A stretch of DNA of 64,000 bases, taken from the NCBI GenBank assembly GCA_000092065.1, contig CP000581.1, one strand, 5' to 3'. The stretch comes from Ostreococcus lucimarinus. Taxonomy: Eukaryota. The notes beneath the pieces are model-generated. The model did not search any database and had not been told where the DNA came from. It saw nothing but the letters and a program-made list of their open reading frames with translations. Both the position numbers and the translations under genes were made by a program. How positions within the stretch are numbered: position 1 is the stretch's first letter; every line of letters starts with the position of its first letter. Of the stretch, positions 1,789 to 57,177 are shown one piece after another.

Positions 1789-3481
1789 TTACAATTCTGA
1801 GTCTACGATGGGCGCTAGCGCCGCTCGAGCGTCTTCGATGACGCGATTCAAGTCGTGCGGGGCGCCGGCGATGAGCCTGGCGAAGGCGCGGACGAGGAAT
1901 GGGGCGGCGGCGTCGAGGTAGGCGCGGACGCACGCGAGGAAGGCGGCGCGCGCGCGGTCGTCTCGAGCCGCGGATGCATCCTTGGATTGGCCGTGCGCGA
2001 GCAAGGAGGCGGTGGCGCGGCTGAACGCAGACTCGAGGGAACGTGCGAGCCGAAGGTTGAGCTCGAGGGCGGGGGTGAGGTGTCGAAGCTCGTTGTACGC
2101 CAAGAGGACGCCGTTGACGAAGGCGGCGAGCGGGACGTGATCGGCCAACGTCGCGGGCGGACCCTCGACGTTATCGCCTGCCTCTGTTTTCGCAGCCAAA
2201 GGTGTGGATTCAGCGGTGGACGATGCCGCCGTCCATGTCGCCGATGCGAGCGCGCGCTCGAAATCATCACCCGCGGAAGCGAGCGCGGCGTCGAAGACGG
2301 CCATCGCCGCGTCGCCGAACACAGGGCGCAACAGCGGCCTCGTGTCCAATCCCACGCGCGCCAAGCTCGTGCCGCAATACTCGCAGTGCTCGTACACCGA
2401 CGCCAGCGCTCCACCTTCGTACACGCGCGGAAGCGTGGCCTTGACTAAGTCCAAATATTTGGAGATCCTATGCGTTGCCCAGCTGTACAACAACGCGCCG
2501 CCGTCTTCGCCCGCGTCGTCACCCGCTTCGTCTGAAAATATCGCCCTATACTGCATGACGACGTCGAACAGCGACACGCGATGGGTGTCCGTGAGCTTTT
2601 TCAAGTACTCGTATGCGTTCGTGTCATCCAACTCCCCGACCGTATTCGCGATGTACTCTTCTCGGCACGCCAAAAACGTCCTGCGCAGCGTCGTCTCGTC
2701 GTACGCGCTCAAACGCCTCAAATACCCCACCATCCGCAAGCACTCCGGCAACTGTATTCCCACTCGCAACCGCGCTAACAATGCTCGCAACATCTCCGCA
2801 CTCGACGCCCGCGCCTCGTCCGCTAACCTCTTCACCAACGCAATATCCCCGTGCGTCGCTTCCATCTTCGCCACGAAATTTTCCAAATCCAGCGCCTCGT
2901 CGTAGTGCCCGTTCCGCACGCACGCATCCAGCAACTTCGGCACCTCCAGCAATTCCGCCACCGCCCCAGAGTTATTCATCAGCGTCCGATTCATCGCTCG
3001 CGCTTTCGCGATCTCTTTCGCGCCTTTCACGAATCCATCGCATCCGCGCTTCAAATCCGGCAGTTGCGCCTCGAGCGTCTCCAACAGCGTCGCCGCGTCC
3101 TTCACCTCCGCCCTCACCGCCGCGTAGCACGCCGCGGCGTCGATGTACGCGCGGTAGTTTCGGACGCTGACGTCTTCAAGTCGTCGTTTAGCGCGCGCGG
3201 CGTCCTCTTCGAGTCGTTTGGGTTCCTACGCCGCGGAAAGATCATCACTCGTCAGTGGGCGGTCGGGACATTTCGTGAGATTTCGTCAAAGAATGCGTCG
3301 TCGCGCGCGCGTGGGCGAGCGCGCGCACCTCCGCGAGGTTCTCGACGCCGCGAGAGAGTAGCTGTGCGACGTAAGTCGCGTCGGAAGGGTGGCTCGACGT
3401 CATCGAGCGCGCGAGGCGCGACTTGAAGTGAGGATTACTGGACGCGCGAGGCGAGCTCGTCGGGGCGCGCGTCGGACTCAT
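1789..3481 (-). CDS. COG8: Conserved oligomeric Golgi complex subunit 8 (Dor1 family). Two exons: 3481..3329 and 3225..1789.
   Basis: Exon 2 (ORF 1789..3117, extended upstream in frame to 3225) reads EPKRLEEDAARAKRRLEDVSVRNYRAYIDAAACY...LPDLKRGCDGF...LPECLRMVGYLRRL, matching the Dor1 signature. Exon 1 (second Met of ORF 3245..3562) encodes MSPTRAP...YVAQLLSRGVENLAE. The junction LAE|EPKRL reproduces the Dor1 LeeLrkEPerL motif. Confidence 0.8.
3226..3328 (-). other. Spliceosomal intron of COG8 (103 nt).
   Basis: Minus-strand donor GAG|GTGCGCGCGC, branch-like CCACTGACGAGTG about 30 nt upstream of acceptor GCGTAG|GAACCC. An in-frame TAG just upstream of exon 2 forces the splice. Confidence 0.7.
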
Positions 3482-9544: not shown

Positions 9545-9903
9545 TCGCGTTCCGTTCGCGTCCGCGCGAACCCGAGCGCGTCCTCGTCCTCTTCCTCGCT
9601 CTCGCTCTCGCGCGTCGCGCGTCCGTCGTCGACGCCCGCGCGGTGTCTCCGCACCACCGTCGTCGCGCGTCGCATCGCGTCCTCGCGCGCGCCGCTTCGC
9701 GCCGCTTCCTCGCGCGCGCGATCGACCGCGAAGGCGTTGGCGGCCGCCCTCAATTTCGACGCCCGCTCGTCGTCCATCGCCGCGCGCGCGGCGCCCGCGC
9801 GCCCCATTTTCGCGCGCGTTTCTTCGCGTCCGTCTCGCGCGCGCGTTTCTTCGCGACGTCGGCGCGCGCGCGTGTGCCGACGCGGCGCGTCGCGCGCGCG
9901 CAC
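8416..9903 (-). CDS. MFAP1: Microfibrillar-associated protein 1 family (spliceosomal B-complex protein). The start may instead be the internal Met at 9807.
   Basis: The C-terminal half matches the MFAP1 domain: KYYHKGAFFQE...IYKRDFSAPTAEEKFDKSILPAAMQVRKGKFGRAGQTKWTHLAAEDTS. The N-terminal half is an acidic/low-complexity region. Confidence 0.75.
9508..9543. repeat. (GTC)12 coding microsatellite.
   Basis: A perfect GTC trinucleotide run on the plus strand encodes a 12-residue poly-Thr tract in the minus-strand MFAP1 gene. Confidence 0.85.
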
Positions 9904-9940
9904 CCCTCGGCGCGCACACGCCGACGCGCGGCGTCGCGCG
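9904..9940. promoter_or_regulatory. Very short head-to-head intergenic region shared by MFAP1 (minus) and beta-carbonic anhydrase (plus); candidate bidirectional promoter.
   Basis: The two start codons lie 40-130 nt apart on opposite strands. Confidence 0.3.
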
Positions 9941-10735
9941 ATGCCGTCCGACGCGATCCGCGACTTGATCGCGGGCTACCGCGATTTTCGCGCCGCGCAC
10001 TTCGACGCGCGCCGGGACGCGCGCGCGCGCGACGGCGGCGCGAGCGGCGCGCGATGCGTGCGGTCGACGCTTCGCGAGCTGTCCGAGCGCGGACAAAACC
10101 CGCGCGCGCTCGTCGTGGCGTGCTGCGACAGCCGCGCGGACCCGGCGATCGTGTTCGACACCGCGCCCGGGGACGTGTTCGTGGTGCGGAACGTCGCGAA
10201 CCTGGTGCCGCCGTACACGGGGGTCGATTTCGGGCACCACGGGACGTGCGCGGCGGTGGAGTACAGCGTCGCGCACCTGGAGGTGCCGCTCATCGTCGTC
10301 ATGGGACACACGCAGTGCGGCGGCGCCGCGGCGGGACTGCGAAAGTACGGTGGCGACCCGAACGGCGATCCCGCGGTGTTCGCGGCGAACGAGGCGACCG
10401 GGGAGGGGTTCATCGGATCGTGGGTCGCGCTCACGAAGACGAGCGTGCGCGAGGTGTGCGAAAAGTACGACCCGGACATTCGCGCGCGAATGCTCGAGCA
10501 CGAGTTGGTGCGAAACAGCGTGAGGAATTTAGCGACGTTTCCGTTCGTGCGGGAGCGAATGGATAAGGGGACGCTGGAGGTGATCGGCGCGGTGTTCAAC
10601 GTCTTCGACGGGACGTTGACAATTTTAGACGCCGAGACGGGCGAGTTCGTCGCGCCGGATATATTCGACGACGACGCCCGCGCGTCGGGCGGCGACGACG
10701 TCGCACCGGATGCGAAGCGCGCGAAAGCGGCGTGA
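9941..10735 (+). CDS. Beta-class carbonic anhydrase.
   Basis: Internal Met of ORF 8852..10735, in frame. Motifs include VVACCDSRADPAIVFDTAPGDVFVVRNVANLV and HTQCGGAAAG, the beta-CA zinc ligands Cys/His/Cys. Confidence 0.8.
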   Translation: MPSDAIRDLIAGYRDFRAAHFDARRDARARDGGASGARCVRSTLRELSERGQNPRALVVACCDSRADPAIVFDTAPGDVFVVRNVANLVPPYTGVDFGHHGTCAAVEYSVAHLEVPLIVVMGHTQCGGAAAGLRKYGGDPNGDPAVFAANEATGEGFIGSWVALTKTSVREVCEKYDPDIRARMLEHELVRNSVRNLATFPFVRERMDKGTLEVIGAVFNVFDGTLTILDAETGEFVAPDIFDDDARASGGDDVAPDAKRAKAA

Positions 10736-17614: not shown

Positions 17615-18396
17615 TCACGTCCCCTTCAGCGTCTCGAGACGGTTCGCTAAATCCGCTTCCGCTTGTTTCGCCGCTGGAATCGTCGTCCCTGCCGCGGGTA
17701 AATCACTCGCAAACTCCAACCCGTGCTCATCCGCGATTTGCTGCATCAGCAACGCCACGTCCTCCGGCGGCGTCGACAACGCCGACGTGTTCCCCATCGC
17801 CTGCTCCACGAATTCCGTCTGAACGTCCAAATTCTCGAACTGTTTCTCGAATTCATCCATCGTCTCCGAAACCTTCTCCAAATTGTTTGTGTTCAAGCTC
17901 TTCTCCAACGATTTCACGATGCCAGACATGTCTGCGTTGACCGCGTTCATCTTCGCCTGCGTCTCCAAACGCGCCACCACGCCGTCCAATCGACTCGCCA
18001 ACCGCAGCATATTCAACCCCTCGTTCTTCTTGCGTATCGCATCTTGCGCGTGTATTTTCGCCCCATCGATATTTCCGCGCTCGATCGCGCGCTTCACCTG
18101 CGAGCGTCGTCGATTCGCCGCGCGTCTCGTCGTCAGTTGCGCGTTCTCCGCCACCTGGCTCGTTCGCGTCCCGTCACCCGCCGCGCGCGGCGTCCAACGC
18201 GCGCGCGGCGTCCGCGCGTCGACCGCGAGCGTCGCGGCGTTAAAACGCGCACCTTTGATTTGTTCGCGCGCTCCTCGGCCTCGCACTTCTTCGCCGCGCG
18301 CGCGAGTGATTTCGCGGTGAATTTCAGATTGAAAATTTGATCTTGCAGCTTGGCGTCCGCGCTGCCGCGACCGAACAGGTTCGAAAGCAGACCCAT
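17615..18396 (-). CDS. CHMP1: Charged multivesicular body protein 1 (ESCRT-III, Snf7 family). Two exons: 18396..18253 and 18097..17615.
   Basis: Exon 1 (ORF 18133..18396) reads MGLLSNLFGRGSADAKLQDQIFNLKFTAKSLARAAKKCEAEERANKSK. Exon 2 reads VKRAIERGNIDGAKIHAQDAIRKKNEGLNMLRL...LEKVSETMDEFEKQFENLDVQTEFVEQAM. The combined sequence matches CHMP1/Did2 end to end. Confidence 0.8.
18098..18252 (-). other. Spliceosomal intron of CHMP1 (155 nt).
   Basis: Donor AAG|GTGCGCGTTTTAACGCCGCG, branch-like CAACTGACGACGAG 31 nt upstream of acceptor CTCGCAG|GTG. Without splicing, exon 1 reads through into non-homologous sequence. Confidence 0.7.
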
Positions 18397-29916: not shown

Positions 29917-30705
29917 ATGCCCGCGCTCGGCGGACTCGCGCTCCAGCGCGCGCACGTGCGCGCGCCGACGCGTCGCGCGCGTCGATCGGGCCGCGCATCG
30001 CCGCGCGCGTCCGCGACCGCGCGCGATGTCGGCGCGAGTGCTGACGTCCCCGAAAACCATCGCGACGGTTCCAGCTCGAGGCGCGCGCTTCTCGCGTCCG
30101 CGCTCGTCGTCGTCGGCGCGTCGGCGATGGGCGAACCCGAGGCCGCGCGCGCGGAGGCGGCGCTGACGACGTACGAGGACGACAAGCTGAAATTCAAAGT
30201 GCAGTACCCGAGCGACTGGACGACGTCCACGGGCGAGACGCCGGCGAGCGAGGAAATCCTCGGTGGAGGCGCCCGTGACTTGTTCACGATCTCCCCTCCC
30301 GGTGCGAACGCGAGGGATGTGAACGTGACGATCGTCGCGACGCCGGCGGGGGCGGATTTCACGAAGATGGGCTCGCTCGGCGACGCGTACGGGTTCGGAT
30401 ACGGCTTGGTGGTGCCGTTGAACAAACCGCGGGCGAAGAAAGGACAAGAGGACAGGATTCAATTCGCCGAGTTGATCGATTCGGTAGGTAAGGGCGATTA
30501 CTACAAGGTTGAGTACAAGTTTGCCAAGCCGTCGACTGGAATTAACAGCATTTTCTTTGTTCTCGCCGGTCTCGGCTACGACGGACGAGTCAGTCACCTG
30601 TACACGGCCACCGCGCAGTATCCGCGCGCGGAGGAAGACAAGTGGCGCGCGCAAGTCGAGGCAATCATTGACTCTGTAGTGTATCCGCCGACTATTTACG
30701 GGTAA
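29917..30705 (+). CDS. PsbP-domain protein (thylakoid lumen, Tat-targeted).
   Basis: Second Met of ORF 29848..30705; the first ATG lies only 8 nt after the anamorsin stop codon. A twin-arginine motif SRRALLASALVVVGASA precedes a PsbP-like fold: YEDDKLKFKVQYPSDW...NVTIVATPA...GDYYKVEY. Confidence 0.65.
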   Translation: MPALGGLALQRAHVRAPTRRARRSGRASPRASATARDVGASADVPENHRDGSSSRRALLASALVVVGASAMGEPEAARAEAALTTYEDDKLKFKVQYPSDWTTSTGETPASEEILGGGARDLFTISPPGANARDVNVTIVATPAGADFTKMGSLGDAYGFGYGLVVPLNKPRAKKGQEDRIQFAELIDSVGKGDYYKVEYKFAKPSTGINSIFFVLAGLGYDGRVSHLYTATAQYPRAEEDKWRAQVEAIIDSVVYPPTIYG

Positions 30706-30772
30706 ATGGCGGAAGGAGTAAGCGGGCGTCCCTCATGGCCGGCGTCGCCCCTACGAGCGAGACGAGACCACG

Positions 30773-31468
30773 TTAGACCGCGGTATTTAATTGTTGTAAT
30801 CTCTGGGAGAGTAATCTGCGCATCAAACGTCGTTTCCCGCGTCGCCCGCGCGCGCTTCGTTTGACTGATCGTCTCACGGCCATACGCACGTAAGTTCTAT
30901 CACGCACCACGCGAGCGAGCTCGATGCCGCGACTGCACGTCTCGGTTTGCGCGTCGGTTTCGTTGACGTAGAGAATCAACGGTGACTCCTCGAGCAACTG
31001 CACCCCCACGGGCTGCAGCTCGATCTTGGACATCCCACTCCCGTCTGCATCGGTCCAGTTGTAAATGCTTCCATCGATGGTGACAAACAGACCGCGATAC
31101 CCGACGGAGACGTTGCCGTACGCGATGTATTGCCGAAGAATCTCTTGCACGTACGCCTTATTCTCGAGCACGGATTCCTCCCCCGTAAGTTCGAGGATGT
31201 CTTTCCAGTACTCGATTTCGTCTTCGAGATCGTCGTCAGAAGGCACGAAGAAGGTCAAATCGCCCGTGACTTCGTAGAAAAGGCCGCCAGGCACGACGAG
31301 CGCGTCGAGCTCACTGAACTTGGCCAACGTCGCAAAAAGAGAATCCTTGGAGGCGTCGCGCAGGGCGGAGCCGATGACGACGTTAACATCGGAGCAGTTT
31401 AGCGTGGCGTTTGAGGCGGCGATCGAGCCGGGAAAGATGGCGAGAAAGGCGAGGAAGATGAGGAACAT
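30773..31468 (-). CDS. Secreted fasciclin (FAS1)-like domain protein; low GC.
   Basis: Signal peptide MFLIFLAFLAIFPGSIAAS. A FAS1 H1-like motif LTFFVPSDDDL is present with N-glycosylation sites. The R/K-rich C-terminus may be read-through, so the 3' boundary is uncertain. Confidence 0.4.
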   Translation of the reverse strand: MFLIFLAFLAIFPGSIAASNATLNCSDVNVVIGSALRDASKDSLFATLAKFSELDALVVPGGLFYEVTGDLTFFVPSDDDLEDEIEYWKDILELTGEESVLENKAYVQEILRQYIAYGNVSVGYRGLFVTIDGSIYNWTDADGSGMSKIELQPVGVQLLEESPLILYVNETDAQTETCSRGIELARVVRDRTYVRMAVRRSVKRSARGRRGKRRLMRRLLSQRLQQLNTAV

Positions 31469-31581: not shown

Positions 31582-33369
31582 TTAAGCCGCTTCTTTCATG
31601 ATTTGTTCGGCGACAACCTTGACGCCCATGAGCACGAGCGGAACGCCGTTACCCGGTCGCGTCGACGCGCCTACGAAATGCAAGCCGTCGACGACGGGCG
31701 AGTCAAGCTGCTTGATGCCCGTGCGCACCGGCGGTCGGAACGCGGCGAGCTGCAACAACCCGTGAGACAAACCAAAGACAGCGCCGTTCTTAATGTTGAA
31801 CTTGTCGCGCCATTCCGAGGGCACGGTGACGGATTCGTGCGCGATGATTTCTGTGAGGTCGCCGTGACCCGCTTCCTTGAAGCGTCGCAAGATGGCTTGT
31901 CGGCCAGCCTCGACGAGTTCGGTCTCACTCGGCACCGGAACGCCCCGTTTCTTGCAAATATTTTCTTGCTCTTTAATGTTCGCAATGGGGAGCAAAATCA
32001 TCAGCGAGGCACCGCCCTCCGGCGCGCACGTCTTATCCGTGTACACCGGGTTGTGGCAGTAAAAGTTGTGTTGACGCGGCGCTGCAAAGTCATCCACCGT
32101 CGCCGGACGCTCCCAGCTTCCCTTGTAGTCACCAGATAGAAAAACGTTGTGGTGCAACAATCCAGGGATTTCCTTCTTCAAGCACCAGTTGAACTCGAGC
32201 ACGGAGCACGAATAATCGGCGTTTTCCCACTTTTCGCTCTCCTTCTTCGCCGGCTCGCCCACCGAGTCGAGCATTTGATCCCACACGCACGGTAAATCCG
32301 GATTAGCGACGACGACGTCTGCGTTCATTATCTCGCCCGAAGCCAAGCGCACGCCGGTGACTTTTCGTCCCGTGTGCGAGCCGCCCTTGGCGTCCGCCAA
32401 ACCGCTCACTTCCTCGGTGAGAATCTCGGCGACTTCGCTGTTGAGGCGAACCTTGGCGCCCTTCTTCTCCGCTAGCGCGTTGAAGCTTTCGCGCACTTTG
32501 GTGAACCCGCCCTTGGGGTACCACACCCCGTCCGTGAGCTCGGTGGCGGCGAGCAAAGAGAAGACGCCCGGCGCGTTGTACGGGCTCAAGCCGACGTACA
32601 ACTCTTGGTACGAGAAGAGCGCGCGCAAGCGCTCATCCTTGAAATACTTGGCCATTTGGTTAAACTGCGGAAGCAACAAATCGATCGGGTTCACCGCGAG
32701 CGCGAGCGGACCGACGCGAGAGAGATCCACAAAATCCAGAATAGAGTTCGCGTCTCGCTCGATGAACGCCGCGACGCCGTAATCCAAACTCGCCCGCGCG
32801 CGTCCGAGCCAATCGATGTATCTCCCTCCCGCCCCGAACTCGACTTCATCTAACTGCTTACGCATCGCCTCGATGTCGTACAACAAATCGAGCGTCGTGT
32901 GATCGCCAAAGTGCGCGCGATACGCCGGGTCCACGCGTTCGACGTCCATGTAATCCTCCATCTTCTCCCCCACCGACGTGAACTGCTCCATGTACCGCTC
33001 CGGAAGCAGCATCAACGACGGTCCGGTGTCAAACCTGTACCCTTCCCCCCCCCCCGCGAACGTCTCGCTTCGACACCGTCCCCCCACGTCGCCGTTCTTC
33101 TCCAAAAGCGTCACCTCAAACCCGGCGTTCGCCAGCCGCGACGCCATCCCGAGTCCTCCGACCCCCCCCCCGACGACGATCGCCGCTTTCCCGCGCCCGA
33201 CGTCCGACGCCGTCGCCGTCGCCCGCGTCGTCGCGCCCGCGCGTCGCGCGCGCGCGCCGTCGCGCGCCGCGCGCCGGTCCCGTCCCGCGCCGGCCCGCGC
33301 GCGCGTCGCGTCCGCGCCGCGCGCGCCGCCCGCGCGCGTCGCGCGCGACGACCGCGCCATCGCGCGCAT
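31582..33369 (-). CDS. CrtI-family FAD-dependent desaturase/isomerase (bacterial-type phytoene-desaturase-like or CRTISO-like) with a transit-peptide-like N-terminus.
   Basis: FAD-binding motif AAIVVGGGVGGLGMASRLANAGFEVTLLEKNGDVGGRCRS, GYRFDTGPSLMLLPE, and the CrtI hallmark VWYPKGGF. Confidence 0.65.
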   Translation of the reverse strand: MRAMARSSRATRAGGARGADATRARAGAGRDRRAARDGARARRAGATTRATATASDVGRGKAAIVVGGGVGGLGMASRLANAGFEVTLLEKNGDVGGRCRSETFAGGGEGYRFDTGPSLMLLPERYMEQFTSVGEKMEDYMDVERVDPAYRAHFGDHTTLDLLYDIEAMRKQLDEVEFGAGGRYIDWLGRARASLDYGVAAFIERDANSILDFVDLSRVGPLALAVNPIDLLLPQFNQMAKYFKDERLRALFSYQELYVGLSPYNAPGVFSLLAATELTDGVWYPKGGFTKVRESFNALAEKKGAKVRLNSEVAEILTEEVSGLADAKGGSHTGRKVTGVRLASGEIMNADVVVANPDLPCVWDQMLDSVGEPAKKESEKWENADYSCSVLEFNWCLKKEIPGLLHHNVFLSGDYKGSWERPATVDDFAAPRQHNFYCHNPVYTDKTCAPEGGASLMILLPIANIKEQENICKKRGVPVPSETELVEAGRQAILRRFKEAGHGDLTEIIAHESVTVPSEWRDKFNIKNGAVFGLSHGLLQLAAFRPPVRTGIKQLDSPVVDGLHFVGASTRPGNGVPLVLMGVKVVAEQIMKEAA

Positions 33370-33482
33370 CGAACCGAACCCAATCGCCTCGCTCGCGCCG
33401 CGCTCGCGTCCGCGCGCGATCGACGACGCGCGCGTCCGTCGACGTGTGACGCGCGCGACGCGACGACGCCGACGGGCCTATC

Positions 33483-33590
33483 CGCGGCGACCGATCGCGA
33501 TCGATCGATCGATCGCGGGCGATCGATCGCGCGTCGATCGCGATCGCGAGCGATCGACGCGATCGATCGATCGCGTGGCGTAAAAAAATA
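33483..33590. repeat. GATCG/CGAT-rich degenerate tandem array in the intergenic spacer.
   Basis: Sequence reads ccgatcgcgatcgatcgatcgatcgcgggcgatcgatcgcgcgtcgatcgcgatcgcgagcgatcgacgcgatcgatcgatcgcg. An 11-nt G homopolymer follows at about 34019..34030. Confidence 0.7.
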
Positions 33591-33744
33591 GAAGAGAAAA
33601 GCGCGATCGCGTCGTAGTCGACGCCGCGCGAGCGCCATCGGATGCGCGACGATATCGACGCGAAACCCTCGCGCGCGCGCGCGCGCGACGGGACGTCACA
33701 GCGCGACGACGATGCACGCGACGACGATGACGACGCTCGGTGGG

Positions 33745-34500
33745 ATGAACACCGCGCGTCCGTGCGAGATTTCGCGAAGAGGTGCGCGCGAGAATTCGTG
33801 GCCGCGATCGAGCGCGCGTGGGGACCGCGCGAGGGGTCGCCGAACGCGCGCGCGCGAGGGATGGGGCGACGACGCGTGGGGTCGCGACGGGGGGGCGACG
33901 ACGCGCGACGGCGCGCGACGGCGCGCGCGGGCGGCGCGGGCGGGACGATGGGAGGTCGCGCGCGAGGTTCGGGCGGCGCGCGGCGTTCGCGCGCGCGGGG
34001 GGTCGCGGCGGCGCGCGCGCGGGGGGGGGGGCGCGCCGCGGCGCGCGGGGGGCGTTTGAGGGTTTTAGGTCTTGTGACTGACGGGTTTCGCGTACGCAGG
34101 CGCGGGGGCGACGTTCGGCGTGGAGACCGAGCAAGGGAAGTGGACCATGATGCGCCACGGGAACAAGAACGCGAAGCTTAACAAGCCGGCGGATCAACGT
34201 AAGGCGCTCATTCGAGGGTTGACGACGGAGTTGCTTCGCCACGGAACGGTGACGACGACGATGGCGCGCGCGAAGGCGATGCGAAAGCCGGTGGAGCACA
34301 TGATTCAATTAGCCAAGGATGGTGATGACTACAAGCGACGCATGGCGGAGGCGTTCATTTACGATAAGGAAGTCGTCGAGGCGCTCTTTGAGCAAGCGCC
34401 GAAGCGATATGCTGATCGTAACGGTGGTTACACACGCATCGTGCGCACGTTGAGCCGCCGCGGGGATAACGCGGAGATGGGCGTCATTCGCCTTGTGTAA
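33745..34500 (+). CDS. Bacterial-type ribosomal protein L17 (organellar, nuclear-encoded). Conserved exon 34100..34500; putative short first exon about 33745..33781.
   Basis: ORF 34120..34500 reads [37 protein letters not shown]...GGYTRIV...[13 protein letters not shown]17/rplQ-like. An in-frame TGA lies upstream of the conserved region. A CGCAG| acceptor at about 34099 with a GACTGACGG branch, and an AG|GTGCGCGCGAG donor at about 33782, would join the exon [12 protein letters not shown] in phase. The first exon is a hypothesis. Confidence 0.6.
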
Positions 34501-34627
34501 ACCGCTTGACTAGAGCGACGCGAGCGCAATTTAATAGGATCACGAATTATTTGTTCATCGCCTCCATCGTTTCGACGTATCGCGTGATTTCAGCGTTCTA
34601 TTACAACACGAAGGGGCGAAAACAATC

Positions 34628-35023
34628 TCACTTCTTCGACTTCGTCTTCGCCGCCTTGGTCGTCTTACCCTTCTTACTCTTCGGTTCTTCTTTTTCGCCC
34701 TCCGCGGCGGCGCGTTTCTTCTCTTTGTGCTCGTTAGCCAATCTCGTGAGCTCGGCCGCGCGTTTCTCCTTCTTCGCGATACCGATTTGCATGGCTTTGT
34801 ACAGCTCTCTCTTTTTGCGAGGCAAGAGCATGTACGACATCTTCTTCATCTGTTCCTCGTCCGAACCCTTGGCGAGCTGATCGCGCATGATTTTGTCCTT
34901 TTCGCTCAGCGCCATGTCGAACGTGAGGCGACTCTTCGGGTCGCCGTTCTCGTCCTCTGATGACGACTCGTCCGAGGCGTCCTCGTCTTCGGAGGCGTCG
35001 TCGTCCGAGGCGTCGTCGTCCGA

Positions 35024-35055
<32 letters not shown>

Positions 35056-36649
35056 TCTTCTCCAAAGACTTTGAGTACGAAACCCCCTTTATTTCCGCTT
35101 CTAGTTCTTTTCTGTAACGCTTCTCTTCCGCCGCGGCCTCCGCTTCTTCGTCCATTTCCGCGTCCGCGTCGTCGAGCACCTTGATCATCGGCACGCCGTT
35201 TTTAATGGCGCGCGTCTCTTCTTGGAGCTTCAACAGCGTCTTGGCGTACTCGGGCGTGTACCCATCGTCATCGGCGCCGACGAATGGACTCAAGTGAGGC
35301 GGTGGCTCGCATTCGGGAGCGTAGTCTTTGGGCGGAATGAGCACGCGCCAGTTGGCGCAATCGCACACCCATTGCGGCTGCACGTACACGACTTTGGGAT
35401 TCAGCTTCATGTTCTTCGTCGGGCGATCTATGACGACGTGCGTGATGCGCGAGTCATCGGCGTCGTACGGGGAACCGTCGCCATCCCAGCACACCTCGCC
35501 ACCGAAAGATTTGATGATGAAGACCATCATGTTACGCGGAACCTCGCGATTGATAAAGAAGACGAGACCGTCGAAGAGTCGCGCGCACTCGCGTTGCTCG
35601 GGTGTCATCTCTTCGTCTCCGCCATCTTCGTCGTCATCGTTCGCCATGTGCGCGTCTTCGTCGTCGTCTTCTTCTTCGTCTTGATGTTCGGCGATCAACG
35701 CGAGCTTTTCCTTGAGGGATTGCGCACGCGATTCTACGGCGCGCGCCGCTTCGCTATTCGCCGGCAGCGCGCGCGCGTTCGCCGCGTCGGCTTGCTTCGC
35801 GAGCTTGTGCACGACGGCAGCCAGACCCGCCGCGGCGTCGTCCATCTCCTCGTTCAAAGTCGGTGGATATTGCAATCCAGCGTCTTTGTACAGCTTAAAG
35901 TTCACGAACGACATCAAGTCGTGGTAAAACTCGAGAAACGTGAGCATGACGCGGTAGTCCACGTCCTCGGGCATGGTTTGCGCCAACGCGTGCGGCTCGA
36001 GCCACGTGATCTTTTCTCCTTGAATCTCCGCCTCGTAGTAAATCCCCTTGACAGAAATAAAAACCTTTCGCAAAGCGTGCGTTCGCACGCAAAACGACTT
36101 AAACTCTCGACTCAAACGCTCCGACTTCTCCACGATTTCGGGCGCGATGTCGTGCCGATTCACCGTCGGCAGCACCGCGAACAGCGCGCACATCGCCATC
36201 GGGTCATCCAGATCCCCCAGCGCGTCCTGAAACGTCGGATACCGCTCCAGCACCAAATGACTCAGCTCATACCGCGGCGTGTTATCCCTCAACCGATCGA
36301 GCGCTACGTAATTTTGTTTCGCCTTGGCCCGCTTCAGCTTTCTCGCGTACGCCCTCAACTCCCGAAACTTCTCCAACAGCGGCTCGTGATGCAAGAACGC
36401 GATGTCCTTGACGTGATAATACGTCTTCCCCTGCCCCTGGTGCTTCCTTCGCGGCTCGCGCGGGTGAATCCCCTTCAGTATGCACAGCCTTCGAAAGTCC
36501 CCGAGCTTGAGCTGCAGTCGATGCAGCGCTTGATTCCGCGTCACGTATCGCGACGACGCGGACCGCGTCGTCCCTCGCTTCGCCTTGAGCGTCGACTTCG
36601 GGATCACTCGCCCCGTGGCGCTCACTTTTTTCGCCTTTCCGCCGCCCAT
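34628..36649 (-). CDS. PES1: Pescadillo (ribosome biogenesis, PeBoW complex).
   Basis: Met 34 of ORF 34628..36748. Colinear with PES1: MGGGKAKK...YVTRNQALHRLQLKLGDFRRLCILKGIHPREP...TFYLIKDI-like block, a BRCT region (FFINREVPRNMMVFIIKSFGGEV), and an acidic tail. Confidence 0.85.
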
Positions 36650-37134
36650 CGCGCCTACGCGCCGCGGTTCGCGGGCCGCCGGCGGTCGCCTCGCCGGGCC
36701 GGCGGCGGCGCGCGCGCGCGCGCGATTTATGCGTCGCGCGGTGTACATCGCACCGAGGACGCGTATACCGTTTTTCTATACTTACATATGTATCATTTTA
36801 TACATTATTTTATAGTTAGTACGTATACTTCAATACGCGTCGTATATGCTTCCAGCACCGTGATACATAAAAAAAAGCATCCGTTCCGAAGCGCGTGTCC
36901 GTTCCGAGCGCTCGGACACCCGACCGATACCTCGACGCGCGGGAGGACGCGCGTCGACGCGCGCGCCGCGCCGCGCGACGCGACGCGACGCGTCGCCGCG
37001 ACGCGCGCGAATTCGCGATTCGCGAGCGCCGCGTCGCGCGACGGGACGCGACGACGGCGCGCGACGCGACGCGGAAACGAAAGACGTTCATTCGAGCGCG
37101 TCGGAGACGCGCGAGGATCGAACGTCGCGCGACG
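36650..37134. promoter_or_regulatory. Divergent intergenic region between PES1 (minus) and a coiled-coil gene (plus), with an AT-rich core at about 36760..36860.
   Basis: The core, ttttctatacttacatatgtatcattttatacattattttatagttagtacgtatacttcaatacg...ataaaaaaaagc, is a sharp AT island in roughly 70% GC surroundings. Confidence 0.35.
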
Positions 37135-40696: not shown

Positions 40697-43661
40697 TTAC
40701 TTTCGAGAACCGCGCGTTCTACTACTTTCTTCCAACCTTGAATTCTTTAACTTTTCCAACATGATACACGCGCGTTCTCCTATCCAACCGCATATAGTTT
40801 TGAGCTTCCAGTCTTCGCCCTCGGGACCGAGCGTGATTAAAAGAAGCGATATGAAGACGAGCGCCCACACGAGAGAGCTCGCGATTGTCGTGGTGATCAA
40901 AAACGCGAATTTCGCGAAAAATTGTAGGGTACATAGCCAAAGGATCGAACCACTTATAACAGTCGTCACCGCTGAGGCGACGATCGACACGCCCATCGTT
41001 GCGAGCGCGTATTGCGTTCGATCGCCTCTCGACTTCATCGCCGCCGGCGCCTCGACGTAAGCGTTTCCTAAATGCACGCCGTAATCCACGCTGAGGCCGA
41101 TGAGAATGACCGCCGCAATAGTTTCGCGAATCCCTAAACTCCAGTGCATGACTCGATAAACGCCGATCCCAAGCACGCTTACCACGACGCCGGCGACGCT
41201 CACTGAACAAATGGACGCGACCAACACGTTCCCCGTGCTGATGCATAAGACGACAAACGCCATACAAAAGCAGATGCTAATTCCTTGAAATGTATTATCC
41301 ACCAACGTCTCTTGCATTCGCATCCATGTCCAAGCGACGTATGCAGTTTGTGACCCGCTCTTTACGCCGTCTGGGGCGACTTCATTCAGATTTCGGATCA
41401 AACCTTCGAATTCGTCGTGCACCCCTCGAGAGACGCTCGCTGGCGCTTGATGCATGAGGGTCGATTTCGTGGATACTTTCACAAAAAATAATTCGGGTTC
41501 ACCAGAGTTTTTGTTTGGTCGAAATCCAATTTGATGCGCGTATCGTGATCCCACCGACGACGAGCGAAACTCCCAAAGCTCGTCGAGGAAGCTGTCTCGA
41601 GGAACTGGAAAGTTTTCTTCGCCCACGTAATCGCGAAACGCCTCCATGAAACAATCCACGTCGCGCGTGAGTCGACCATCTCTACATCCTCTCGAAGAGC
41701 AGCTCGCGTGACGAAGCGTGAGACAGCTATTCAAAATGTGTACCTGCGATACCTCTGCGGAAACGTCGAAAGATTCGTCCAATTGCAATCTGCCCCTCGA
41801 CGCCAAATCCCATTGCGAAACGCTCGACATGTCCACGCCGAGCAAGCCCCAGAACACGTCCACAGCCACAACCAAGTCGTCGTCTGAACGCAAAAAGGCA
41901 GTCTGGTCGCGATCACTAAACTGCTGTACGAGGTGTTTCGATGAGTACCAGCGCTCGATTTTGGAGGGTGTCTCAAGACGCACGCAAAATCGTGCCGCGA
42001 CGATGAACATAGCCGTGAACGCACCGATCGTAACGAATCGTACGAATGGCCGCCTGAGCGTTTGATAGAACGGCCCGTGGAAGAATCGTTCAACACGACC
42101 GAGTTCTTTTGATTCGACGATCTCACTTTCGTTGATTTCTTTGCTCGCCGGCAAGAATTGGCGCCACGTCATGTTCTCGAAGTATCGTGCAAAAAGCACG
42201 AGAGCGGCTGGGAACAAGAGCACGTTTACGACGAACAATACAGCGATCATCGTCGCCGAAACTATCCCAAAAGCCGCCAGTGGCGTTATCGGTGACCACG
42301 CTGTGGCTAAAAACGCTCCTGTGGTTGTGAAAGACGTCACGAAGATGGCTTTCGACGCCCTGTCGGTGGAGTACATCAGGCGGTCGAAGAGAGCATCGCC
42401 GACTTCCGCTTCCGTCGCGCTCTGACGAAACGCATCAAAGTACACGAAAACATCATCGGCACCAATGCCGAGACAAATGAATATACTGAGCGCTTGAATG
42501 TTTCCGACGTATGGGATGCGAAAAATGAAACGGTAGATGAGCAACGCGATCGGGAAGGACACGAGAATCTCAAACATGCCGCACGTTGCGATGAACAGAG
42601 ATCTCGTGTTGAACGCCATGTACAGCCACACCGCGGCGATCGAGGCAATGGCCCACGCCAAGTCGCTCGCAATCACTCGGGCTGAGTCGCGCTCACGCAA
42701 GAATTCAGCATCCCAACGGGTGATCAAAGTAGCCCCCTTCGCGCGTTCGCGCGTTGACGTCATGTAAGGAGAGCTGACGAAGCTCCCTCGCATGCCGTAT
42801 CGACGAAACAGCGCGGTCTCGATGGGGTCAAGAAACGAAGCGAGCATCGCCTCTTGTTCATCCGGTCTGTCACTCGAACTCACGAATCCACGAAACGGTG
42901 TCCCAACGGGATACTTGGCGCGCGTGATTCCGACAGTCGCCGCGGTCGAGTCGAAATCGCCTAGAAAATATCCAAACGCGCTTAAATTGGTCGCGAATAC
43001 GTCCCGCACAACGGCGTCGACGTCGTCGACCATCGTTCCATCTTGATCGAAGAAATACGTCAGCGGCGAGAGATACGGCACACATCCGCGCGCGATGCCG
43101 AGCTCATCGTACTCGATTTGACAAAAATCTTCGTACCTGGCGAGCGCGATGGCTTCCACGTCTCGCATCGCCAGCAAGTTTTCTCTCGTAAACACACTCT
43201 TTCCGCGCACCGAGCTTTCCCACTGAAACATAAACGTCCCGCGTGCATTTTCTTCCGACCTCTCGCGCGTCTGGTGCGCCGTCGCCGCGCTTCCATTCGA
43301 CGCGTACCTGCGTTCGCGCCGCCGACGCGCGTTTCGTCAGTCTCGCCTCGCCTCGACGACGCCGACCGCCGCGCCTCGACCCCCCTCATCTCCCTCGTTC
43401 GACCCCCTCCCGCTCCGTCCTCGATCACGCGATCTCGTCTCGTCGCGCGCACCCGTCCAGCGTCTTCATCGCCATCCGCGCCGCGTCCGCGACGCTCGTG
43501 ATCCCATCCCTCGCGATGACCCACTCGCGCTCGCTCGGCGCTTGAAACTCCATCGCGCCGCCCAGGTACGACGCGAGCGCGCACGCCGTCGTCGCGATCG
43601 CGACGCACGACGCGCACGCGATCGGGCGTTCGTGCGCCGTCCTCGCGCATCGTCGCAGCAT
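40697..43661 (-). CDS. Patched/Dispatched-family RND-type membrane protein with a sterol-sensing domain. Two exons, about 43661..43453 and about 43307..40697.
   Basis: SSD motifs include SIFICLGIGADDVFVYFDAF, two TM bundles and two large loops. The main ORF lacks TM1, which lies in an upstream exon (MLRRCARTAHERPIACASCVAIATTACALASYLGG...KTLDG). Donor GG|GTGCGCGCGACG, branch GAGACTGACGAAACG and acceptor GCGAACGCAG|G join the two in phase. Confidence 0.65.
43308..43452 (-). other. Putative intron of the Patched-like gene (about 145 nt).
   Basis: Same donor, branch and acceptor grammar as the other introns in the window, and the phase is compatible. Exact boundaries are plus or minus a few nt. 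Confidence 0.5.
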
Positions 43662-48658: not shown

Positions 48659-49852
48659 TTAGGTTCCGTGCGTTTTTTGGATTTGAACGACGTCCTCGTC
48701 CTCGAGCACGTGCTCCTTACCCACGCGTTGCGGACGATGCTTCACGCTCGTCCCCCACACCAAGGCGTGCTTGAACGTGCGAATAATCGTCTTGTGCAAC
48801 TTGTTACAGAAATCTTCAACCGTGCAATTCTTCTTGTGCAGAATGATTGGTTCGTCGAAGTTCGGCTGCGTACCTCGCGGCATCGTGTACACGCGAATCA
48901 AATCGAGATACTCCCAAACCTTCTCCAACAAACCGTCCAAGTTCCACTCTTTTTCAGAAGACGTCATGACGTAGTGCTTCATGTCATCCATGAGCTGCAA
49001 TTCTTCCAACGAAACGGAGTCCATCTTATTCACCGCGTACACCGCAGGGGTGTAGATGCGGTTACCCTCGATGACATCAATCAATTCCTCATCCGTGCAA
49101 TCCGCGAAGAGCTTGACGTCGGCGTTGTGAATCTTGTACTCGGCGCAAATGCTCTTCACCGTCTCTTCGTCCAAGAAGGTTGTCTTCCCGTTGGGGTTAG
49201 GCGTGAACGCGATCCCACCTTTTTCTTTCCTGTTAAAAGTGATCGCCGGCGGTTTCTTGTTCAAGCGTATGCCCACACCCTCCAATTCGTGTTCGATTAA
49301 TTTGCGGTGCGTAAACGGCTTCAACGCGTCGAGCACGATGATTATCACGTCGCACGTTCTCGCCGTGGAAATCACCTGTCGACCGCGACCTTTGTTATCC
49401 TTCGCGCCTTCGATGATACCGGGAAGATCGAGCAACTGAATGCGAGCGCCTCTGTATTTAATCTATCGAGTCGAAGCAAAATCGTCGTCAGTCCTTCGTC
49501 GCCGAGCTCGACCGCGAACGTTAAAACTCACCACTCCCGGCACGCACGTCAGCGTCGTGAACTCATACGCCGCCGCCTCTGAAAAGACCCCCGTCAACTT
49601 CGTCAACAGCGTCGACTTTCCAACGGACGGAAACCCTACCAATCCCACTCGACAGTCCCCAGTCTTCGTGACGTCGAAGCCCTCGCCTTTGGGTCCACCC
49701 TTCGGTCCCGCGAGCTCGACCAGCTCTCGCTGCAGCTTACACAACCGCGCGCGAAGCGAACCGATGTGTGAGCTCGTCGCCTTGTTCACCTGCGTTCGGC
49801 TGATCTCCAGCTCGATCGCGGCGATTTTATCCATGATGGCGCCGTCACTCAT
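48659..49852 (-). CDS. DRG1: Developmentally regulated GTP-binding protein (Obg-family GTPase). Two exons: 49852..49532 and 49462..48659.
   Basis: Exon 1 reads [26 protein letters not shown]...[26 protein letters not shown]...TTLTCVPGV. Exon 2 reads [31 protein letters not shown]...TGS domain. The junction VPGV|[17 protein letters not shown] matches human DRG1 [21 protein letters not shown]. Confidence 0.85.
49463..49531 (-). other. Spliceosomal intron of DRG1 (69 nt).
   Basis: Donor GTG|GTGAGTTTTAACGTTCGCGG, branch GGACTGACGACGA, acceptor CTCGATAG|ATT. An in-frame TAG sits immediately upstream of exon 2. Confidence 0.8.
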
Positions 49853-56685: not shown

Positions 56686-57177
56686 ACTACGTTTCGCGCG
56701 CGCGTCGCGCCTCGTCGTCAGTCGTTTTTTCGAGCGCGTGTCGAGTCAACGTCGGTAAAAGTTCGTTTAAACGCTCGTCCGTGTCCCAAAGCTCTCTCGA
56801 CGCGCGCGTCGCGTCGCGCGCGCGCGGCGCGCGGTCACGACGTGAGGTTGCCGCATTATACGCGTCATCACGCACCCAACGTATATATCGCGGTCGCTCG
56901 TCGCGAAACGAACGCATGAAGTTCCGCTGCAGCCACTGCCGCTGGACGCGCCGCTCATGTCGCCGGAAGACGACGGAGCGCGCGAGACGATGCGACGGTG
57001 CGAGCGTTAGATGCGCAGACGCGATGTCGTTCGGTTCGACCGCGGCCTGTCGGCTCGCGCGCTGCCGCGCGCGCGGACGTGTGCGGCGCATGTAGGGGCG
57101 CATGTAGGCGCCAGCTGGAGGCGACGAGGCGTGGAGAGTTGGTCCAAGTCAGTTGGATTCGTTCTACTAAATGTCTT

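Follow-up and report, generated by a model that had tools for sequence, protein, structure and literature searches.

The 64-kilobase (kb) stretch of DNA analysed here, referred to as the window throughout (64,000 nucleotides (nt) of contig CP000581.1, assembly GCA_000092065.1), carries compact eukaryotic genes in DNA of about 60% G+C and is nuclear DNA of Ostreococcus lucimarinus CCE9901. Gene models were checked by exact protein look-up against annotated proteins, and seven window proteins match RefSeq proteins of this strain at every residue. Our main subject is the gene for ribosomal protein L17 on the plus strand. From the reading of the open reading frame (ORF), the coding part of its exon 1 (33712..33781) comprises 23 codons and the first base of a glycine codon. 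A spliceosomal GT-AG intron of 318 nt follows (33782..34099), inserted in phase 1, with 81% G+C and a strong G skew, and then exon 2 (34100..34500), which encodes the L17 domain, preceded by a conserved plastid-specific N-terminal segment, and closes with a TAA stop codon at 34498-34500. The 5' splice site GTGCGCG (33782..33788) is preceded by the exon base G at 33781, so that the donor context reads AG^GTGCGCGCGAG with the first intron base at 33782 (here and below a caret marks a splice boundary). The branch-point motif ACTGACG lies at 34077..34083, within the extended motif GTGACTGACGG at 34074-34084, and its branch A falls on 34081, 18 nt ahead of the last intron base. The 3' splice site CAG^ (34097..34099) completes TACGCAG^, ending at 34099. 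The best explanation overall, to which we assign a probability of roughly 0.93, is that 33712-34500 constitutes a two-exon nuclear gene for plastid bL17c, interrupted by a 318-nt intron of the U2 type.

The reading frame itself points to splicing. An in-frame TGA at 34075-34077 falls inside the extended branch motif and overlaps the 5' flank of ACTGACG. Because this TGA shuts the frame, the FGVE segment encoded at the beginning of exon 2 can be translated only if an exon is spliced to an acceptor situated between 34078 and about 34108. In the pathway that we propose, exon 1, with its 70 coding bases, would contribute the initiation codon and the greater part of a short transit peptide; the intron would then be removed through signals typical of the genus, namely GTGCGYG at the donor, (G)ACTGACG 18-35 nt before the acceptor and a terminal YAG; and exon 2 would supply the plastid-specific N-terminal segment together with the L17 domain.

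The splice junction is present in public sequence data. Two cDNA-like Logan contigs from independent public sequencing runs, L008 (SRR17229554) and L009 (ERR9850603), fuse position 33781 straight to 34100, reading ...ATTTCGCGAAGAG^GCGCGGGGGCGACG, with ...GAAGAG^GCGCGGGGG at the junction. In L008 the L17 unit lies in a string with G-alpha and HSP90, and in L009 it is accompanied by LHC; both contigs are head-to-tail strings of unrelated messenger RNAs (mRNAs), a structure that points to cDNA assemblies and not to intron-less genomic alleles. The L17 unit in L008 spans about 33705 to 34536, from which the 3' untranslated region (UTR) would be some 36 nt long and the 5' UTR very short. An equivalent junction, ...AGCAGAAACG^GTGTCGCTTCC, is seen in a sister-clade contig from JGI (L010) when set against its genomic counterpart L013. 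L010 is likewise a chimera, made up of an rRNA-like segment, L17 and S19. As L008, L009 and L010 are all chimeras of abundant mRNAs, their junctions are usable and their transcript ends unreliable.

The exon-intron structure is also deeply conserved. The orthologous loci compared were those of O. tauri (L007), of other Ostreococcus clades (L011, L013 and L015), of a divergent O. lucimarinus-like variant (L004), and of Micromonas-like (L016, L017) and Bathycoccus-like (L018) contigs. At all of them a short ATG-started exon ends in a phase-1 glycine codon at G^GT(G/A)CG, and the intron closes with a branch motif, ACTGAC or CTGAC, and then a YAG^ acceptor, after which the conserved xxFGVE segment begins. 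Six Ostreococcus lineages and the Micromonas- and Bathycoccus-like loci thus share exon 1 and its donor as well as the place and phase of the intron, and ACTGAC is kept in every lineage of orthologous L17 intron. The introns themselves range from 307 to 457 nt, with bodies that cannot be aligned and lengths that do not keep the frame. In line with this pattern, metagenome variants within the species differ by substitutions only in exon 1, and in the intron by insertions and deletions (indels) that are not multiples of three. Judging from these alignments, the L17 intron is ancient, its position being shared across genera. On the sense strand, Ostreococcus L17 introns show, in addition, a strong excess of G over C (GC skew between +0.31 and +0.42 and G runs of up to 11, in the window, L004, L007, L011, L013 and L015), and they exceed the other introns of the window two- to fourfold in length; those of the Micromonas- and Bathycoccus-like loci have no G skew.

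Two points weigh against the spliced gene as we describe it. The cDNA nature of L008 and L009 is deduced from contig structure, and an O. mediterraneus MMETSP transcript ORF (P0166) has only a 117-amino-acid (aa) form of L17 flagged 'complete', which is compatible with some transcripts being unspliced or truncated at the 5' end. In relation to the first point, the intron-less L17 contigs might be intron-loss genomic alleles or artefacts of reverse-transcriptase template switching, and a difference between clades in the presence or absence of an intron is indeed seen nearby, in the Patched-like gene. We nevertheless hold this to be highly improbable: the intron is present in all 40-odd genomic L17 contigs, drawn from many samples and clades, in the intron-less contigs L17 gives way to unrelated mRNAs precisely where its transcript is expected to begin and end, and the missing segment has canonical GT..AG bounds, leaving a junction without any direct repeat beyond a single G. 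The second point bears on a different possibility, that there is no functional upstream exon and that a 117-aa L17 of bacterial length is made from the ATG at 34147, on an unspliced or internally initiated mRNA. Besides the ORF from O. mediterraneus, 117-aa L17 ORFs are called hundreds of times on metagenome contigs; however, the prokaryote-style gene callers behind them are blind to introns, and such a protein would have neither a presequence nor the FGVE..GKW plastid segment that aligns to plant bL17c. With spliced cDNA-like contigs at hand, and with exon 1 and its splice signals kept across genera, this possibility is equally remote, and a spliced two-exon L17 gene remains by far the better account.

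The spliced product agrees with the reference annotation. An initial annotation, made from the letters of the window, had joined a 12-codon first exon starting at ATG 33745 in phase to exon 2, and had explained in this way the TGA just 5' of the conserved start. The TGA is there, and splicing yields a 145-aa protein identical to XP_001415668.1 / ABO93960.1, 'Plastid ribosomal protein L17 large ribosomal subunit' (UniRef A4RS28); the RefSeq model has the same start at 33745 (12 codons and one base before the donor), the same donor, the same acceptor and the same stop. The first exon can therefore not be called cryptic, as had been suggested, since it already figures in the reference annotation. 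Donor, acceptor and phase stand as proposed, while the 12-codon start gives way to a likelier one of 23 codons at ATG 33712, which the evidence discussed below favours over that of XP_001415668.1.

The comparison is also informative for O. tauri. The L17 model deposited for strain RCC1115 (P0007; GCA_002158475.1, KZ155838.1) is marked 'partial' and contains a non-canonical 70-nt intron with TC..GT borders. At the O. tauri locus (L007, 2744-3124), the conserved exon 1 (MALFVAHQCALGGMNARRVDISRP) is found at 2744-2815, and it is followed by G^GTGCGCG, a branch motif AGACTGACGA and GATAG^, which together delimit a canonical 307-nt intron. By this reading of the locus, the deposited O. tauri model is faulty.

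Regarding the identity of the protein, the Ribosomal_L17 domain (Pfam PF01196) is matched over the full profile length with E = 2.4e-32. The best matches among solved structures are to spinach chloroplast bL17c, at E = 2e-45 (PDB 5MLC, 5MMM, 5H1S and 4V61), with bacterial L17 proteins at about 1e-26 and mitochondrial bL17m between 1e-14 and 3e-20, and the named L17 homologues are chloroplastic or cyanobacterial. The L17 domain begins at the internal ATG of exon 2 (34147), which is where bacterial L17 begins. Immediately 5' of this ATG, the segment xTFGVExxGKWxM is conserved in all close and distant relatives, and its counterpart in the alignment with the chloroplast bL17c precursor of spinach is FTVIDNGGRVFAM; the spinach side of the segment before MxHG reads FTVIDNGGRVFAMRHG. 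The predicted protein is accordingly of the plastid type, bL17c, and the broader label 'organellar' given in the initial annotation holds and can be sharpened, spinach bL17c being far closer than bL17m. The N-terminal extension amounts to 40 aa (29 aa from the annotated start) and is hydroxyl-rich, and exon 1 probably encodes most of a transit peptide for the plastid. The algal presequence is nonetheless short, with about 25-30 residues before the conserved segment, where the spinach precursor, a chain of 205 aa, has about 77.

Translation of L17 probably starts at ATG 33712, 11 codons 5' of the annotated ATG at 33745, and would yield a protein of 156 aa instead of 145 aa. In this regard, all six Ostreococcus lineages have an in-frame ATG 23-25 codons before the donor, with predicted N-termini MHATTMTT..., MMMTTTIST..., MALFVAHQCA..., MSLFVSQQCA..., MSALVHASMS... 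and MYAALSASSS..., and one cDNA-like contig encodes a 156-aa L17 that starts with MYATT.... L008 also includes ATG 33712. The methionine chosen both by RefSeq and by the initial annotation lies 12 codons before the donor here and 11 codons in the others; it is missing in clade B, where the frame is nonetheless open from an ATG at -23, and it matches an internal methionine of the 49-codon Micromonas exon 1, a longer exon backed by full-length transcript-derived proteins. In the divergent variant L004 the upstream ORF has remained free of indels despite a 7-nt insertion directly before the ATG. On the other side, L008 and L009 turn to unrelated sequence within 0-7 nt of ATG 33712, and therefore either a very short 5' UTR or an ATG that sometimes lies outside the mRNA is possible. 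The competing view retains the exons and the intron and places initiation at ATG 33745, as in RefSeq. It draws on the fact that the genomic match of L009 starts only at about 33715, past the upstream ATG, and that the 5' UTR of L008 would be at most about 7 nt; moreover, around 33745 the sequence CTCGGNGGGATGAAC differs very little from that of O. tauri, and an ATG at -11 or -12 codons occurs in four of the genus's five main clades. We consider initiation at 33745 unlikely in view of the absence of this methionine from clade B and its internal position in the Micromonas-like exon, and a protein begun there would have only 7 residues before its first acidic residue, an unusually poor transit peptide. 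The upstream ATG at 33712 is thus our preferred start. As a separate observation, position 33715, in codon 2, is C in the window and T in all five close metagenome variants and in both cDNA-like contigs (His to Tyr), and the divergent variant L004 also differs at this position; the allele of the cultured strain looks like a minority one.

A second conserved feature of the gene lies within the intron. The 19-nt sequence TTGAGGGTTTTAGGTCTTG (34056..34074, plus strand) is the only k-mer of at least 10 nt common to the L17 introns of five Ostreococcus lineages, and it is more conserved than the adjoining coding sequence. It is unchanged in all the Ostreococcus lineages sampled; it recurs at 3070-3088 of the O. 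tauri contig and at about 2361-2379 of L013, and is also present in L011, L015 and L019-L050. Of 32 exact matches in metagenome contigs, 29 fall in L17 introns, representing at least nine intron lineages, and the remaining three are unrelated chance occurrences. The window holds no second copy, even when 3 mismatches are allowed, and none was found elsewhere in 396 kb of Mamiellales DNA, apart from a related block in two Micromonas-like L17 introns. This block reads TTTTCAGGGTTTTGGGGTTT(A/G)GGCGGGC, and the core that it shares with the Ostreococcus element is AGGGTTTTRGG. In all eight lineages the element lies 325-361 nt from the start codon, a nearly fixed interval despite exon 1 lengths that differ by 78 nt between the genera (148 nt in Micromonas, 70-76 nt in Ostreococcus); the distance from the element to the acceptor ranges from 25 to 252 nt.

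Several identities were considered for this element. A small nucleolar RNA (snoRNA) hosted by the intron was set aside: there is no Rfam match in the L17 intron at E <= 1, by reading the window intron has neither TGATGA nor ACA, and the 19-mer does not occur in the supplements of the O. tauri snoRNA paper. Prasinovirus and other viral contigs hold no copies of it, and no consistent RNA pairing partner was predicted. The plant-type telo-box, AAACCCTA(A/G), is found near the transcription start of genes of the translation apparatus, and the core shared with Micromonas, AGGGTTTT, has on the minus strand the heptamer AAACCCT but lacks the final A of the telo-box. A copy of AAACCCTC in the promoter, at 33663-33670, is not kept in other lineages and is probably due to chance. 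A minus-strand telomerase RNA template was likewise rejected, as the reverse complement of the 19-mer, CCTAAAACCCT, has four A residues compared with the CCCTAAA telomere motif of O. lucimarinus (Fajkus et al., 2021, Table 1). The searches made brought up no prior description of such an element. We tentatively put forward the 19-nt sequence as a gene-specific candidate regulatory element of plastid L17, either a telo-box-like intronic site for a transcription factor or an RNA site for splicing or expression; it could be a cis-regulatory DNA site as well as a sequence-specific RNA site, and both are live options.

The splice signals of L17 recur in the other introns of the window. The initial annotation had claimed a single architecture for five introns, and this is borne out: four of them, that of L17 included, give RefSeq proteins once spliced, and the fifth, in the Patched-like gene, is supported by an intron-less orthologue. 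The remaining introns lie on the minus strand. The intron of COG8 (3226..3328, 103 nt) has gag^GTGCGCGCG at its donor, CCACTGACGAG at the branch and GCGTAG^ at its acceptor, and its spliced product is XP_001415998.1, with a spliced form of longer start present in Logan contigs. That of CHMP1, a member of the Snf7 family (18098..18252, 155 nt), has aag^GTGCGCGTT, CAACTGACGAC and CTCGCAG^ and yields XP_001416003.1, and that of DRG1 (49463..49531, 69 nt) has gtg^GTGAGTTTT, GGACTGACGAC and CGATAG^ and yields XP_001416010.1. The intron of the Patched-like gene (SSD/RND; 43308..43452, 145 nt) shows cgg^GTGCGCGCG, AGACTGACGAA and AACGCAG^. Exact look-up with four alternative starts returned no annotated protein for this gene; in the sister-clade contig L026 (about 9890-10420, minus strand), however, the homologues of exons 1 and 2 form one uninterrupted ORF. 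Because the insert of 145 nt is not a multiple of three and the ORF of L026 is uninterrupted, it must be spliced out. The first intron of the Patched-like gene is thus also a gain or loss difference between Ostreococcus clades.

The wording of the claimed signals is likewise sustained, with one amendment. G^GTGCGCG is found in COG8, CHMP1, the Patched-like gene and L17, GTGAGT in DRG1, and the branch motif 18-35 nt before the acceptor, all as stated; the acceptors are CGCAG^ or (A/T)TAG^, except in COG8, where GTAG^ is used. A strict scan of the 64 kb for donor, branch and acceptor motifs recovered five of the six confirmed introns with zero false positives, and one of these five is absent from the list of the initial annotation. 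This additional intron lies in a gene for an ERD4/RSN1-type channel (56687..56875, minus strand, 189 nt), with tgg^GTGCGTGAT, CGACTGACGAC and ACGTAG^ and hence with the signals G^GTGCGTG, GACTGACGA and CGTAG^, and the spliced 1307-aa protein is XP_001416012.1. Considering the six introns together, G^GTGCG(C/T)G serves as donor in five and G^GTGAGT in one (DRG1), ACTGACG is present in every one with its branch A 18-35 nt from the YAG^ acceptor, and G+C content spans 54-81%.

The discriminating power of these signals resides in their combination. Neither GGTGCGCG alone (16 seen versus 11.8 expected in the window) nor ACTGACG alone (9 versus 10.4) is enriched, whereas the ordered triplet GGTGCG[CT]G ... 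ACTGACG ... YAG is seen 5 times. In 300 first-order Markov simulations the triplet averaged 0.19 occurrences and never exceeded 2, and all five occurrences in the window are real introns. A candidate intron at about 30576-30889 (minus strand), from a scan for ACTGAC without the final G, was discarded, its unspliced ORF being the annotated FAS1 protein XP_001416006.1. Further introns may be present in the window.

The genes of the window include COG8/Dor1, a NatA auxiliary subunit, CHMP1/Snf7, a C2-domain protein, a CrtI-like amine oxidase, L17, Pescadillo, the Patched/SSD protein, DRG1, the ERD4/RSN1-type channel and an Rpb2-family subunit. The block surrounding L17, with the CrtI-like amine oxidase on the minus strand, L17 on the plus strand and Pescadillo on the minus strand, spans 31582-36748. 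This order is maintained in Ostreococcus, Micromonas-like and Bathycoccus-like contigs (L001-L007, L013 and L016-L018). The divergent promoter region between the amine oxidase and L17 contains palindromic (CGAT)n / CGATCG repeats at 33480-33575. Rfam matches resembling microRNAs at 33490-33575 were far under the gathering thresholds, coincide with the CGATCG repeats and were judged to be chance. Closer to the gene, GACGTCA occurs at 33692-33698, and GACGTC, an ACGT-core motif of the bZIP/CRE-like kind, is found some 10-110 nt 5' of the L17 ATG in most lineages (L004, L007, L011, L013, L016 and L017, in addition to the window). It may have arisen by chance, given the CG-rich DNA.

With respect to known intron classes, the introner elements of Micromonas, reportedly repeated families of introns, deserve mention, as they are likewise introns of Mamiellales algae. 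Comparison among the six introns revealed no matches beyond the splice signals and no repeated copies within the window, and the L17 intron occupies one and the same position in Ostreococcus, Micromonas-like and Bathycoccus-like genes; we therefore reject an introner-element origin. A closer parallel is provided by the constrained introns of Saccharomyces, which follow GTATGT ... TACTAAC ... YAG. Both genomes are intron-poor and combine near-invariant 5' splice site and branch motifs with a short and fairly fixed distance from branch to acceptor. The motifs themselves differ, those of Ostreococcus being GTGCGYG and ACTGAC(G), in introns that are rich in G+C.

These signals are those of a class already described. 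For O. lucimarinus introns outside chromosome 2, the 5' splice site has been reported to be strong and atypical (GTGCGTG, 4.8 bits) and the branch point to be extended (GACTGACG), with ACTGAC in 87% of the introns confirmed by expressed sequence tags, and Ostreococcus introns have been regarded as convergent with the constrained introns of yeast-like type (Irimia and Roy, 2008, PLoS Genet, PMC2483917). The window agrees with the published consensus, with ACTGACG in six of six introns and GTGCG[C/T]G in five of six. Its donors mostly have C at position 6 (GTGCGCG), in contrast to the genome-wide T, and DRG1 has GTGAGT. The L17 intron itself conforms to the non-chromosome-2 class in its GT-AG borders with GTGCG(T/C)G, its ACTGAC(G) branch motif, its precise removal and the non-coding evolution of its body. 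The uniformity of the splice signals is, then, already known for the introns of Ostreococcus, those in the intron-rich half of chromosome 2 excepted.

Together, our findings indicate that the L17 gene structure proposed from raw sequence is correct but already known, because the gene model was annotated and the intron grammar was published in 2008. The L17 model in GenBank/RefSeq dates back to the 2007 genome, and as a discovery it carries little weight; it is useful as a check that, in the O. lucimarinus genome, true eukaryotic gene structure can be worked out by reading the raw letters. Only three points go beyond the existing record, namely the probable 11-codon extension of L17, the fault in the O. 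tauri model and the conserved element of the intron. The first two are practical by-products for annotation, in that the RefSeq start of L17 is probably 11 codons too far 3' and the O. tauri RCC1115 model is partial. The third, a deeply conserved element within the L17 intron, offers a concrete target for the gene-replacement tools of O. tauri.

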